Assembly: GCF_017348835.2 (NCBI RefSeq)
Contig: NZ_CP071375.1
DNA length: 64,000 nucleotides
Reading direction: 5' to 3' (one strand)
Origin: Escherichia coli
GTDB lineage: Bacteria > Pseudomonadota > Gammaproteobacteria > Enterobacterales > Enterobacteriaceae
Each line of letters begins with the position of its first letter. Position 1 is the first letter of the stretch. This document shows positions 37,719 to 44,700 of this stretch, piece by piece. The notes below the pieces were generated by a model, which was not told the origin of the DNA, did no database searches, and saw only the letters and a list, made by a program, of their open reading frames with translations. The translations under genes were made by a program, and so were the position numbers.

Positions 37719-38840
37719 TTATTCGTAGGTAAAGGAGAAGGTCGCGTTACCGGAGAATGTTCCTGTTCCGATAGGTTTACCACTGCCATCGGGGACGAGT
37801 TGTGCTGTAAAAGGGAATGACAACAAGTTATTCGACCAGACAGGGAAGTTATAATCAATGGAAGCAACGCCATCTGGTTTTAATAACACTTTGCTATCAT
37901 TATAAGTTGAATTAACTCTTACAGCCACGCCTGTGGCAGAGCCAGTTGTTTTACCCACCAGATTTTTGTCAGTGGCTGCATTTGCAGCCGTCAGCTTAAC
38001 CGTAATCTTGCTGGCATAACAATACTCACCACGGATAGCAAAGGGAACTTCTCGGGTAAGACCATTTTTAACTTCGGATACGTAACTGTTACCTAACTGG
38101 ATTTCTGTGCCACTCACATTGCCTTTGTCCTGATCCAGGGTAATCATTGAACAGGTTGGTTGGTCAACGTAAAAGTGAACGGCACTATCCTGAACAGTAA
38201 AGTTTACCCATGCCTGGGTATTATCACCTATATACCAGGAAGCAATTTTTCCTGGCAAGGCATATCCTTCGAAAACCCCATTTTGAGGTTTAAATTCCGG
38301 CGTCCAGTAAAAACGAAAACGCAAATACCAGTCGTTGTCACTGTATTCATAAGCCCACTTGGTATCGCTGGCCGGTATGAAGTTATCTGCGCCGCTTTGT
38401 GCAGGTAAAACTAAATCAAGTTCATCTGCAGCACCACAGCTTATACATACCAATTCTACGGAGTAGACAATACCAGGAACTGTTGTTTTTAATAATGCGC
38501 CATTATCTTTCGAAACATAGGTTGATAACAAACCTGCATCCGCAGTGTTAAGAAAGTGTACTGAAGTAGTACCCCCTATATCGGACTTACATCCAATCGT
38601 CTCACCGTTCCTGTCCTTAAGTTTAATATTTGTATCATGAACCATGTCGCTTATTTCTTGTGGCGAAGATACCATTTGCGTTGTTATACTTTCAACCTCA
38701 GGGTTTATGACCATGTCATAAGTTCCCCCCGCCCATTTTTCTATATAACATTCCATCGCAGATGCAGACAAGGAGCACATAAAAAATAACAGTATTGCAC
38801 TGCATAACTGTCGTAACAGTTTATTGCCTTTCCTTTGCAT
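37719..38840 (-). CDS. yadC: fimbrial tip adhesin-like subunit (YadC family)
   Basis: 373-aa ORF with signal peptide; ends ...FSFTYE like the other pilin subunits; last gene of the chaperone-usher operon. Confidence 0.75.
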   Translation of the reverse strand: MQRKGNKLLRQLCSAILLFFMCSLSASAMECYIEKWAGGTYDMVINPEVESITTQMVSSPQEISDMVHDTNIKLKDRNGETIGCKSDIGGTTSVHFLNTADAGLLSTYVSKDNGALLKTTVPGIVYSVELVCISCGAADELDLVLPAQSGADNFIPASDTKWAYEYSDNDWYLRFRFYWTPEFKPQNGVFEGYALPGKIASWYIGDNTQAWVNFTVQDSAVHFYVDQPTCSMITLDQDKGNVSGTEIQLGNSYVSEVKNGLTREVPFAIRGEYCYASKITVKLTAANAATDKNLVGKTTGSATGVAVRVNSTYNDSKVLLKPDGVASIDYNFPVWSNNLLSFPFTAQLVPDGSGKPIGTGTFSGNATFSFTYE

Positions 38841-38851
38841 AATTATCCTTA

Positions 38852-39442
38852 TTATTCGTAAGAAACATTAACAATAACCTGGCTTCTCACCATCCCCGAC
38901 TCGGGTGGGAGAGCATTATTCACCCGTTGCATACGGGAATAAAAGGTCCAGGTTGACGGAACAGCATTGCCTGGAGCGACAGAATAAATCGCCGTTGAGG
39001 AACCGTCCGTTCCCCGCACGTTAAAGGTCTGCTGATTCGGCTGTGCCGAAAATATTACAATGCCGACGTTTTTTGCCCCGGTAGCCTGCTGTTCATATTC
39101 ATTACTAAAAATTTGATTATTCACCTGCGCAAGCGAACCTGCCTGCGGCTGAAAATCTAATTTCATTTGCGACTGGGTCGTTTGAATATTATCGCAGGCG
39201 ACCACGTTAACATTAAACGTCTTGCCACCCGCATAATCCGTTGTTGGAGTTACGTTGTCGGCAAAATAGTCCAGGGTCACACTGCCGAGATCCACCACGC
39301 CATTATTACTCACTTCAACCTGACAGGTACTGGCGACAATCTGCGCGGTGAGATTCACATCCTGACCAGCATAGGCAAAAGGCGTTATGAGGGCTGTTGC
39401 CAGCCCCAAAAAACATACAAATTTATGATGCCTGCATAGCAT
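38852..39442 (-). CDS. yadK: fimbrial minor subunit
   Basis: 196-aa ORF; signal peptide MLCRHHKFVCFLGLATALITPFAYA; C-terminal ...VNVSYE. Confidence 0.8.
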   Translation of the reverse strand: MLCRHHKFVCFLGLATALITPFAYAGQDVNLTAQIVASTCQVEVSNNGVVDLGSVTLDYFADNVTPTTDYAGGKTFNVNVVACDNIQTTQSQMKLDFQPQAGSLAQVNNQIFSNEYEQQATGAKNVGIVIFSAQPNQQTFNVRGTDGSSTAIYSVAPGNAVPSTWTFYSRMQRVNNALPPESGMVRSQVIVNVSYE

Positions 39443-39462
39443 TCTAATATCCTTATCTGCTA

Positions 39463-40074
39463 TTACTGATAAGTGATAGTGAAGGTGGTGGGAGAAAGAA
39501 ACTCGCCCGGTAATACATCATTAACCGTTCTTCCATCGGCGATAATCATCCGCGCACTTAAATCGTAATCATAAGGCTGTGTTGTACTGGCATTAGAAAG
39601 ATCAACCGTGATGACGTTTCGTTGAACACAACTGAGTTGCTGACTGCCGCTTCCCTCGGGGGTCGTAGTCGTCCATACTTCGACCGCTGCTCTGCTTGAA
39701 CCACCAGCGCCGGAGGAAATTGAATTTGCAAAGCCGGCAGTGTTAGACTGACCGCCAGCGCAACCCGTACCAGGCCTGGGCGCTAAAACGAGTTGAGCAC
39801 TCTTCCCTGGAAGACCGGCACAATCACTGAAGCGGATTTTGAATGGTTGCACTTTGCTTTTTGCCGCTAACTCAGAAATATAAACATTGCCCAGGGCAAC
39901 AGTATCTGTCGCTTTATTGCTGGAATCCAGAACCTGAGCACTACAGGTACCCATAGTCAGGTTACTGTTTACGGTTAAAGATGCAGAAGTAGTACTCGCA
40001 TAGGCGAGATTTGAATTAAAGCTTGCACCTACGGCAACAGTAGCAATCAGTGTGGCGATGACTTTTAATTTCAT
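39463..40074 (-). CDS. yadL: fimbrial minor subunit
   Basis: 203-aa ORF; signal peptide MKLKVIATLIATVAVGASF; C-terminal ...TFTITYQ. Confidence 0.8.
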   Translation of the reverse strand: MKLKVIATLIATVAVGASFNSNLAYASTTSASLTVNSNLTMGTCSAQVLDSSNKATDTVALGNVYISELAAKSKVQPFKIRFSDCAGLPGKSAQLVLAPRPGTGCAGGQSNTAGFANSISSGAGGSSRAAVEVWTTTTPEGSGSQQLSCVQRNVITVDLSNASTTQPYDYDLSARMIIADGRTVNDVLPGEFLSPTTFTITYQ

Positions 40075-43254: not shown

Positions 43255-43294
43255 GGTTGCATTCCTGGCGATGTTAAAAGAATCCGTTTATTTT

Positions 43295-44020
43295 TTAGAA
43301 TGTTGCTGAACCATCGATATTGCCGCCAAAGTCATTTATGGCCTGGAACACGACTTTGCCCGATGAAACGCCACCTGACAGACCCGTTACGCTAAAGCTT
43401 GCCTGACTGAACGGCGCGATCATGCTGGAATCGACTTTGTAGCTTTTGCCGCCGCTTTCCAGTTTGACGTCATTGAATGACACGTAATAAGGCGTTGGGT
43501 TATTCGCCTGCAATTGCGTGTTGTTCAACTTCCAGGTGATTTTTGCTGGCGCTTCAGCAGGTTCACCCTGCAAACCGCTCGGGCGATAAAAAAGTTTGAT
43601 GCGCGTGCGGAAAGCCAGTTGTAGTAAGTTTTTGTCAGCCTGGGCATCTTTCGGCTTTGGCGGCACTTCCAGCACGTTAAACCAGTAGACACTTTCCCGG
43701 TCTTTAGGTAGGGCTGTTGCACCGGTATACATTACTTTTACGGTTTGCCCGCGTTTTGGCTCCACGCGTGAAACGGGGGGCGTAGAGGTAAAGGGCACTT
43801 TGATCTGGCTGGGGTCGACATTGTCATTGCCGGTGTCCAACCAGTTCTGAATCAGTAAGGGGCGATTCCCTTTATTTTCCAGACGAACGTTAACATCTTT
43901 TTTATCAGCGTTATAAATGATACGAGTCCCGGAAATAATAATGTCAGCGAATGCTGGCGTACTGGCTAACAGAGTACTCACAAATAATGCACTAACCGTT
44001 TTTTTAACCAAGGGAAACAT
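43295..44020 (-). CDS. yadV: periplasmic fimbrial chaperone (PapD-like)
   Basis: SD aggagtg then ATG at 44018-44020 gives MFPLVKKTVSALFVSTLLASTPAFA...; ORF track start 44095 is upstream. Confidence 0.85.
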   Translation of the reverse strand: MFPLVKKTVSALFVSTLLASTPAFADIIISGTRIIYNADKKDVNVRLENKGNRPLLIQNWLDTGNDNVDPSQIKVPFTSTPPVSRVEPKRGQTVKVMYTGATALPKDRESVYWFNVLEVPPKPKDAQADKNLLQLAFRTRIKLFYRPSGLQGEPAEAPAKITWKLNNTQLQANNPTPYYVSFNDVKLESGGKSYKVDSSMIAPFSQASFSVTGLSGGVSSGKVVFQAINDFGGNIDGSATF

Positions 44021-44106
44021 AAGCACTCCTTGCTGTCTGTGTTGAGATAAAATTAGCGAAAATAAGGTTTGCCTGATGACAAACCCTATACTCAATTCGC
44101 CATCAA

Positions 44107-44700
44107 TTACTGATAAGTAATGGTGTACAGTGCGTTAGTGGTAACGTGACCAGCAGTAACAGCCTGGCTGTTCGGTGCTTTAACGTAAGATGCGTTAAAC
44201 ACATACTGACCGTTGCCTTGTGCGTCTAATGTCAATTCCTGGATTTCAGAAGAATTGTTCATATGGACCTGCTTAATTTCAGCAGCGCCAGCTTTGTTTT
44301 TCATGTTATGAACAGCAATGTTCACGTTCTGAGCCGGTTGAATACCGTTAATCGTGATATTGGTATTGTTGTTCAGGGTGCCGCTGGTGTTCGCGTAGCT
44401 TGCAGAACCCATGGTCAACTGGGCAGTTGTTTTACCCGGTTCGCAATCCACAGAAATCATGAACTCTTTCGGCAGTAAACCAACAGCAGCAGCGCTTACT
44501 TCAGCAAAGTTATCAGTAACATTTGCAGTATCCAGGGTAACCACGCCATCAGTGCTGATGCCGTGCATACCGGTATCTACCACACCCACTTTACAGGTAC
44601 CGGACTGTACCATACCGTTAAAGTCGATATGACCACCATCTACAGCCAGGGCGGAACCAGAAGCCATAACCAGAACGGCTGCGAGAAGTGCTTTTTTCAT
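44107..44700 (-). CDS. yadN: major fimbrial subunit
   Basis: SD aagga then ATG at 44698-44700 gives MKKALLAAVLVMASGSALA...; C-terminal ...ALYTITYQ; first gene of operon. Confidence 0.85.
   Translation of the reverse strand: MKKALLAAVLVMASGSALAVDGGHIDFNGMVQSGTCKVGVVDTGMHGISTDGVVTLDTANVTDNFAEVSAAAVGLLPKEFMISVDCEPGKTTAQLTMGSASYANTSGTLNNNTNITINGIQPAQNVNIAVHNMKNKAGAAEIKQVHMNNSSEIQELTLDAQGNGQYVFNASYVKAPNSQAVTAGHVTTNALYTITYQ

Follow-up and report, generated by a model that had tools for sequence, protein, structure and literature searches.

An intact chaperone-usher fimbrial operon of the O157:H7-like yad lineage with rare adhesin and YadL-position alleles in Escherichia coli

Results

Seven genes between folK and panB

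The subject of this study is a chaperone-usher fimbrial operon at the yad locus of Escherichia coli, contained in a 64-kb stretch of DNA (64,000 nucleotides of contig NZ_CP071375.1, hereafter the window). The open reading frame (ORF) listing of the window has seven non-overlapping ORFs on the minus strand from 44709/44700 to 37719, flanked by folK (45043-45522), with pcnB beyond it, on one side and by panB (36791-37582), with panC beyond it, on the other. Their order (N-V-usher-M-L-K-C) is that of K-12 yadN-yadV-htrE-yadMLK-yadC, that is, major pilin, chaperone, usher, three minor pilins and tip adhesin, and the presence of usher, chaperone, pilins and a predicted two-domain adhesin gives the cluster every sequence-level hallmark of a classical (FGS, gamma-clade) chaperone-usher operon. 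A preliminary description of the window had proposed a complete seven-gene operon of this kind at the yad locus, with all genes intact and provided with signal peptides, and both proposals are upheld by the ORFs, by their Pfam and NCBIfam domains and by the RefSeq annotation of the pig isolate E. coli PE164. No frameshift or truncation was found in any of the seven genes, the lengths of the products are within 4 amino acid (aa) residues of those of the orthologues in EDL933, strain 2824 and Escherichia sp. E1V33, and Sec-type signal peptides are present on all seven. In PE164, a 7.6-kb stretch is 100% identical to the window and is annotated as seven intact coding sequences with the same TTG usher start; the operon sequence is already in RefSeq under the generic label 'fimbrial protein'.

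The five subunits each contain a Cys pair and end in ...TYQ, ...TYE or ...SYE with a penultimate Tyr. The preliminary description had correctly noted C-terminal ...TYE/TYQ motifs, but its term 'donor-strand' for them is a misnomer: the donor strand of a pilin is its N-terminal extension, while the conserved ...TYE segment at the C-terminus is strand F, by which the subunit is anchored to the chaperone. Such an extension, with alternating hydrophobic residues, is seen in the four pilins, in which the Cys pair is spaced by approximately 45–50 residues, and is missing from the adhesin.

Purifying selection, and hence use of the genes, is indicated for all seven by ratios of non-synonymous to synonymous substitution rates (dN/dS) of 0.05–0.25 relative to related strains. 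An assembly artefact was ruled out by the recovery of the adhesin gene at 100% and the usher gene at ≥99% identity in the independent complete genomes PE164 and F2_81, together with the 7.6-kb identity to PE164. A mobile island or insertion was likewise ruled out, given that the borders lack an integrase, insertion sequence (IS) or tRNA gene, and that the same locus is also filled in Citrobacter, Pseudocitrobacter and Escherichia sp. E1V33.

Affiliation with the O157:H7-type operon

The Yad operon of O157:H7 strains (ECs0139-ECs0145 in Sakai; locus L003, 3146-10110, in EDL933; 'loc2') occupies the same locus and agrees with the window operon in the order of its genes, the spacing between them and the TTG start of the usher, although the intergenic region upstream of the window operon is approximately 60 bp longer. 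At the protein level, the chaperone and the usher are each 93% identical to their EDL933 counterparts and the major, M-position and K-position pilins 88%, 89% and 95%, the Shine-Dalgarno sequence and TTG codon of the usher gene are identical, and the ushers fall in one clade with 100% bootstrap support. On these sequence comparisons the window operon is assigned to the O157:H7-like lineage of the yad locus. It does not carry the O157 alleles of two genes: the L-position pilin is 69% identical to its EDL933 counterpart, while the adhesin is 68% identical overall (63% in the lectin domain and 75% in the pilin domain) and falls in a separate 90%-identity cluster (P0001).

Synonymous divergence (dS) gives the same partition. 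Against EDL933 it is 0.3–0.5 for most operon genes and for panB, 1.25 for the L gene and 1.24 for the adhesin gene, compared to 0.03 for pcnB, which represents the genome background. Because dS is itself elevated in the L and adhesin genes while their gene-wide dN/dS is 0.18–0.25, these are older alleles and not merely fast-evolving ones; positive selection as the cause of their divergence is not supported, as gene-wide dN/dS does not exceed 1. The divergence of the two genes runs in parallel across four strains (L/adhesin identities of 88/91, 82/72, 69/68 and 55/54%), whereas the K gene situated between them is 95–97% identical in the first three of these strains and drops to 69% only in strain 361. 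In strain 2824 the M-position pilin is 99% and the L-position pilin 88% identical to that of the window, and identity to this strain, as to EDL933, is mosaic, with blocks of 81–99%. Strain 361 is more distant, with 80% identity in the usher and 54% in the adhesin.

Divergence from the K-12 operon

The preliminary description implied a K-12 yad operon in which only the adhesin varied, and this did not hold. Identity to the K-12 proteins is 40% for the major pilin, 60% for the chaperone, 59% for the usher, 47%, 42% and 39% for the M-, L- and K-position pilins and 24% for the adhesin, such that all seven lie between 24 and 60%, while the flanking genes show 100% (pcnB), 99.6% (panC), 97.7% (panB) and 91% (folK). 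In five of the seven genes dS relative to K-12 is saturated and not computable; for yadN and yadC it is approximately 1.7. Megablast returned no K-12-type match past panB. The divergent tract extends from the 3' end of folK (~45300), where the divergence of that gene from K-12 is concentrated, to the panB/panC junction (~36800) and includes panB, which is 84–90% identical to K-12 at the nucleotide (nt) level with a dS of approximately 0.5 and a dN/dS of 0.02. The divergence of folK and panB looks like hitch-hiking with the fimbrial allele class.

What the two operons share is their position between folK and panB, seven genes in the same order, the gamma4 class and a non-ATG usher start. They differ in the 24–60% identity of each protein and in the length of the adhesin, which is 412 aa in K-12/uropathogenic E. 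coli (UPEC) and 373 aa in the window.

The tip adhesin

The tip adhesin at the YadC position (37719..38840, minus strand; 373 aa) consists of a signal peptide (residues 1–28), a lectin domain (~29–222) and a pilin domain (~223–373), with the match to Pfam Fimbrial (PF00419) confined to residues 228–372. That it is shorter than K-12 YadC, as previously stated, is correct; the suggestion that this reflects allelic variation of YadC is not sustained, since the protein belongs to a separate family with 24% identity to the K-12 protein. With the YadC family model NF007269 it reaches 35 of the required 473 bits, which places it outside that family by the curated threshold, and an hhalign comparison with a K-12 YadC profile gave a probability of 95% with only residues ~110–373 aligned, the first ~110 residues being unalignable. 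A truncated or pseudogenised YadC was also considered and ruled out: 23 full-length cluster representatives of the family are 367–376 aa long and the EDL933 copy is 369 aa, Cys residues and C-terminus are invariant throughout, and dN/dS is approximately 0.2. In the alignment of 24 sequences, C31, C84, C132 and C135 of the N-terminal domain and C230 and C274 of the pilin domain are invariant.

As a search of the PDB with an adhesin sequence profile gave only marginal matches to PapK (E = 0.17), structure prediction was required. The AlphaFold2 model (pLDDT 86) resembles the two-domain adhesins CupB6, LpfD and FimH, and in this predicted structure the mature N-terminus begins directly in the lectin domain without a donor strand. 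The N-terminal domain alone is matched by the receptor-binding domains of Abp1D (10.9), MrkD (10.6), GafD/F17 (10.1), UclD (9.8) and AtfE (9.6; structural match scores in brackets). Over these matches, sequence identity is 8–14% where the match is a two-domain adhesin or a receptor-binding domain, and reaches at most 22% where it is a pilin domain (FimA). Compared to the solved adhesins (CupB6, LpfD and FimH; F17-G/GafD, MrkD, Abp1D and UclD), the window lectin domain is larger (~195 aa) and has four conserved Cys residues (C31, C84, C132 and C135), and the binding-site residues of the solved proteins are not transferable to it. On the strength of the model and the profile comparison, we regard the 373-aa protein as a true tip adhesin that is remotely homologous to YadC.

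Usher, chaperone and pilins

The usher at the HtrE position (40654..43254, minus strand; 866 aa) contains PapC_N, Usher and PapC_C domains, the Usher model (PF00577) matching over its full length (E = 3e-157) alongside PF13954 and PF13953. It scores 1550 bits with NF007337, the HtrE-family equivalog of NCBIfam (cut-off 830), followed by the next family at 509 bits. The TTG start that had been proposed for this gene is supported: TTG 43254 is the sole in-frame start codon between the upstream stop and the signal peptide, it is preceded by AGGA at a distance of 8 nt, and a nearby ATG is out of frame. The sequence comprising Shine-Dalgarno element and TTG, CCAGGAATGCAACCTTG, recurs unchanged in EDL933, 2824 and Escherichia sp. 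E1V33, while strain 361 and a Pseudocitrobacter metagenome-assembled genome (MAG), the usher of which is 70% identical to that of the window, each deviate from it by a single base. K-12 htrE starts with GTG, and from these sequences a weak non-ATG usher start emerges as a conserved property of the yad locus, which would fit a low need for usher protein.

The PapD-like chaperone at the YadV/EcpD position (43295..44020, minus strand; 241 aa) contains PapD_N (PF00345) and PapD_C (PF02753) and scores 419 bits with NF007398 (cut-off 285). A 266-aa ORF with a TTG start was set aside, ATG 44020 with AAGGAG 6 nt upstream being the most likely start. The mature protein carries the motifs GTR(8)IIY and RIK(117)LFYRP; we take Arg8 and the Lys of IKLFYRP to be equivalent to Arg8 and Lys112 of PapD, the subunit anchors.

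The major pilin at the YadN position (44107..44700, minus strand; 197 aa; Pfam Fimbrial) has AGGA 8 nt before ATG 44700, with an alternative ATG at 44709, and displays a signal peptide, the N-terminal extension GGHIDFNGMV, Cys36/Cys86 and a C-terminal ...TYQ. For the M-position minor pilin (40089..40640, minus strand; 183 aa; Pfam Fimbrial, E = 2.6e-16) the start is ambiguous between 40640 (183 aa) and ATG 40652 (187 aa). The L-position minor pilin (39463..40074, minus strand; 203 aa) is hypervariable and has four Cys residues (44, 85, 105 and 149) as opposed to the usual two; it gave no Pfam match at 1e-3, and so escapes the Fimbrial model, and with NCBIfam it scores 300 bits for StaE and 164 bits for YadL, both under their cut-offs. 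The conserved K-position minor pilin (38852..39442, minus strand; 196 aa; Pfam Fimbrial) scores 270 bits with NF011794 (cut-off 132) and, from its place in the gene order, is likely the adaptor adjoining the adhesin. PF00419 is thus matched by the N-, M- and K-position pilins and by the C-terminal domain of the adhesin.

Regulatory region and RNA hairpins

Upstream of the major pilin gene lies an AT-rich intergenic region of 342 bp (44701..45042, minus strand; 36% GC), presumed to be the promoter/regulatory region; GC content is 0.36 at 44500-44999 compared to 0.53–0.57 in the flanks, and the segment 44931-44625 is 95–99% identical to EDL933 and 2824. By analogy, this region is likely a target of H-NS. 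A scan of it for sigma-70-like promoters yielded one weak match (44861-44832) that is not above chance. Two hairpins were located by reading and folding the intergenic RNA, not by consensus scanning. The first, between the major pilin and chaperone genes (44054..44102, minus strand), combines a 12-bp core with a U-rich stretch (−20.4 kcal/mol, z = −4.4), and none of 200 shuffled sequences folds as well; by analogy to the hairpins 3' of fimA and papA it may attenuate transcription or stabilise the mRNA, and could thereby set the ratio of pilin to machinery. The second lies directly 3' of the adhesin stop codon (37663..37716, minus strand; −24.4 kcal/mol, z = −6.9) and comprises a stem of 12 + 7 bp (19 bp, interrupted) followed by UUUUCCCC; again, 0 of 200 shuffles fold as well, and by analogy to fim and pap this is presumed to be the operon terminator.

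Distribution and phylogeny of the locus

The population counts in this study refer to 5,426 complete E. coli genomes and were obtained by gene-specific searches, as the megablast identity bands (65 records at ≥99%) consist largely of short stretches of panB and were disregarded for this purpose. Two genomes, those of the pig isolates PE164 and F2_81, carry the adhesin gene at ≥99% nt identity; the gene has a 93% relative in one chicken isolate (2824) and an 81% relative in one bovine isolate, in which the L gene is split by IS91. The remaining adhesin-gene matches are at or below ~74% identity, approximately 430 of them extending over ≥80% of the gene (O157-type or related) and the rest being partial. 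The L and adhesin alleles as a pair are seen, among the complete genomes, in the two pig isolates, with a 91–93% relative in the chicken isolate. For the usher gene, identity is ≥99% in 2 genomes, 90–95% in 402, 80–90% in 16 and 60–80% in 4,816, the last band comprising K-12/B2-type htrE at 66–68% and a third sublineage exemplified by strain 361; ushers of the O157 type, taken at ≥80% nt identity, thus number about 420. In a collection of 5.8 billion proteins, clustering at 90% identity divides the adhesin family into 24 groups, which span 47–100% identity to the window adhesin and have named members from E. coli, E. albertii, E. fergusonii and unnamed Escherichia species; the cluster of the window adhesin (P0001) is found on 84 contigs.

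The arrangement pcnB-folK-[seven genes]-panB-panC also occurs in GTDB species representatives, namely the cryptic Escherichia sp. E1V33, Pseudocitrobacter and three Citrobacter species. Their ushers are 94% (E1V33), 70% (Pseudocitrobacter MAG), 55–56% (P. vendiensis and P. faecalis) and 55% (three Citrobacter) identical to that of the window, while K-12 HtrE is 58–61% identical to the E1V33, Pseudocitrobacter and Citrobacter ushers. In a neighbour-joining tree of the ushers (816 gap-free columns, 100 bootstrap replicates), the window, O157 and strain 361 form a clade that is joined by the Pseudocitrobacter MAG (100% bootstrap), with K-12 as the sister of this group (99%); monophyly of all Escherichia ushers was recovered in 0 of 100 replicates. 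A caveat to this tree is that a MAG is among its key taxa, although the flanks of the MAG operon (pcnB 90.5%, panC 89.4%) fit a non-Escherichia genome. Judged by sequence, the distance between the K-12 and O157 yad lineages is roughly that between genera.

Decay of the locus is common among other strains, and the intact copy in the window is therefore not a given. A30 (L006, 3138-8378) has an internal stop in the major pilin gene and frameshifts in M and L, OkiPb01695 (L005, 6079-8378) has IS91 in the L gene, and the K-12-type locus of E2348/69 (L019, 4246-10752) contains four pseudogenes.

Other features of the window

On the panC side of the operon, rpnC (34682-35554, plus strand), encoding a recombination-promoting nuclease, specifies 290 aa compared to 300 aa in K-12; in related strains this gene is interrupted, by an internal stop in 2824 and by ISEc49 in OkiPb01695. 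Between rpnC and panC (~35650-35830), RefSeq lists a 180-bp fragment as 'hypothetical protein, missing N-terminus'. Rfam gave no family match in the operon region, and the sole match at the gathering threshold in the 64-kb window is the tp2 small RNA (RF02030; 10732-10845, minus strand; 103 bits), which is unrelated to the operon. Equally unrelated is ppdD-gspE(hofB)-hofC (~2350-5380; 4102893-4105920 in PE164), a cryptic type IV pilin cluster of core E. coli.

Discussion

Whether the operon is to be called Yad depends on the definition employed. By its locus (between folK and panB relative to MG1655) and usher phylogeny, as used by Wurpel et al. 2013 (PMC3559732), it is Yad: its usher groups with HtrE and not with other E. 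coli ushers, with NF007337 as the top family and K-12 HtrE as sister at 99% bootstrap. The NCBIfam equivalog cut-offs agree for the usher, the chaperone and the K-position pilin, while the curated thresholds for YadC, YadL, StaA, StaD and StaE are all missed. Under the requirement of ≥80% identity and length relative to the HtrE reference of extraintestinal pathogenic E. coli (PMC13245861) it falls outside Yad, as judged from the 59% identity of its usher to K-12 HtrE. When the 80% criterion was applied with HtrE of EC958, Yad was reported from no phylogroup E strain and from 5% of phylogroup D strains (PMC13245861), and yet 'Yad' has been studied in O157:H7, a phylogroup E strain type (PMC11287998, PMC7098969); this conflict arises because two usher lineages with ~59% aa identity are concerned. 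Wurpel et al. equated Yad with Sta on the basis of usher phylogeny and locus (PMC3559732), and the best NCBIfam models for the N-, M- and L-position pilins are indeed those of StaA, StaD and StaE of Salmonella Sta (staABCDEFG), a likeness at the level of family models, all of which score under their curated cut-offs. The folK-panB operons of Citrobacter and Pseudocitrobacter are syntenic with that of the window and have ushers 55% (Citrobacter, P. vendiensis and P. faecalis) or 70% (Pseudocitrobacter MAG) identical to it. The system itself is known, and the operon is best classed as a novel and rare combination of alleles in the O157-type Yad lineage.

Employing the combined evidence, we consider the window to encode an intact gamma4-type chaperone-usher system of the O157:H7-like yad lineage with rare adhesin and YadL alleles, operating by donor-strand assembly, and attach to this reading a probability of roughly 85%. 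In the model that we propose, all seven products would be exported by Sec, after which the PapD-like chaperone would cap the pilins by donor-strand complementation, with Arg8 and Lys117 holding the C-terminal ...TY(E/Q) strand and its carboxylate. The usher, which may be kept scarce because it is translated from a weak TTG codon, would recruit the chaperone-adhesin complex first; since the adhesin has a lectin domain in place of a donor strand, it should be able to sit only at the tip. The K-, L- and M-position pilins and subsequently many copies of the major pilin would join by donor-strand exchange through their N-terminal extensions to give a thin, flexible fibre. The hairpin after the major pilin gene probably favours the output of pilin over that of the machinery, silencing in the absence of specific cues is a probable role of the AT-rich upstream region, and the lectin domain would set what is bound, the receptor probably being different from those of K-12 YadC and of the O157 adhesin.

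Support by analogy comes from O157:H7. Expression of the Sakai operon ECs0139-0145, the machinery of which is 88–95% identical to that of the window operon, gave thin flexible fimbriae (PMC7098969). Deletion of the operon in strain 86-24 reduced expression of the locus of enterocyte effacement (LEE), attaching and effacing (A/E) lesion formation and late gut colonisation, and the O157 locus is transcribed from its native promoter, reportedly as three transcription units (PMC11287998). Several points weigh against the proposed reading. Expression and assembly of the window fimbria are predictions from its genes, and how the minor pilins are arranged along the fibre is deduced by analogy to fim and pap only. 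The lectin domain shares at most 14% identity with solved adhesins, for which reason its receptor cannot be deduced from them. Consensus scans found 6 promoter and 7 terminator sites, compared to 12.9 and 8.0 expected by chance, and are uninformative for that reason. Furthermore, heterologous expression of Sakai Yad did not raise adhesion to HeLa, Caco-2 or MDCK cells (PMC7098969), and a passage of PMC3559732 citing earlier work calls K-12 yad cryptic in the laboratory.

Some of these points also bear on whether the operon, though intact, is an H-NS-repressed, cryptic reserve that is rarely or never expressed and is heading to decay, which we regard as a possibility of limited weight. It would account for the AT-rich upstream region without a convincing promoter and for the decay of the same lineage in A30 and OkiPb01695 and of the K-12-type locus in E2348/69, and it accords with the cryptic nature ascribed to K-12 yad in that passage (PMC3559732); against it stand seven intact genes with dN/dS values of 0.05–0.25 relative to relatives, the native transcription and phenotypes of the O157 version (PMC11287998) and the induction by serum of yad in extraintestinal pathogenic E. 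coli (PMC13245861), albeit of the K-12-type lineage. That the operon is essentially the orthologue of K-12 yad, with ordinary variation or shortening of the adhesin only, is very improbable. Locus, gene order and gene number are equal, usher and chaperone pass the equivalog cut-offs of the HtrE and YadV families and the K-12 usher is the sister group of the window clade, but this is countered by the 24–60% identity of all seven proteins, by dS values that are saturated (five genes) or ~1.7 (two), by the lack of a K-12-type megablast match past panB, by the failure of the adhesin to approach the YadC cut-off (35 of 473 bits) and of YadL models to reach theirs, and by the first ~110 adhesin residues, which are not alignable with YadC. 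Moreover, the 60% identity between the K-12 and window ushers is comparable to that of either with the Citrobacter ushers (55–58%).

As to origin, the segment may have entered E. coli recently through homologous recombination, with a non-coli Escherichia or a different enterobacterial genus as the donor, in place of being an old polymorphism of the species, and to this we can give only tentative credence. The extent of the divergence, from the folK 3' end (~45300) to the panB/panC border (~36800) with panB at 84–90% nt identity, would be expected of such an event, as would the window panB protein being 99.6% identical to that of Escherichia sp. E1V33 as opposed to 97.7% to K-12, and the nearest outgroup usher stemming from the Pseudocitrobacter MAG (70%) while Escherichia monophyly is found in none of the 100 bootstrap replicates. 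Yet the lineage is present in approximately 420–785 of the 5,426 complete E. coli genomes and adhesin relatives occur in E. albertii and E. fergusonii; the mosaic identity to 2824 and EDL933 (81–99% blocks) points to long-standing recombination within the species, and a dS to EDL933 of 0.3–0.5 (1.25 for L and the adhesin gene), far over the background of 0.03, argues for the co-existence of several old alleles. Recent import and old polymorphism are not mutually exclusive, and the pattern fits long-maintained allele classes that are reshuffled by recombination, with occasional import from relatives also allowed. It is conceivable, if doubtful on present evidence, that very old yad allele classes, some predating the split of genera, are kept by balancing or host-specific selection, that the L pilin and adhesin are co-varying 'specificity' genes which recombination reshuffles around a conserved YadK adaptor and machinery, and that the receptor specificity of the window pair is unlike that of O157 or K-12 and possibly linked to livestock.

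The findings leave the understanding of how such fimbriae work unchanged; their use lies in correcting the assumption of K-12 orthology, in exposing inconsistent definitions of 'Yad-positive' strains and in the evidence for deep, possibly trans-generic allele lineages. The name yad covers two, and at least three, lineages that are 24–60% identical at one locus, as a consequence of which surveys of its presence or absence by identity threshold give conflicting answers. The ligands reported for YadC of K-12/UPEC, xylose and annexin A2 (PMC6921372, PMC13245861), are, given this 24–60% identity, not transferable to the window or O157 operon, and the rare adhesin allele is a candidate for glycan-array comparison. 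The yad locus represents a compact natural case of deep polymorphism in a surface adhesin, the divergence of which spills over into the essential genes panB and folK.

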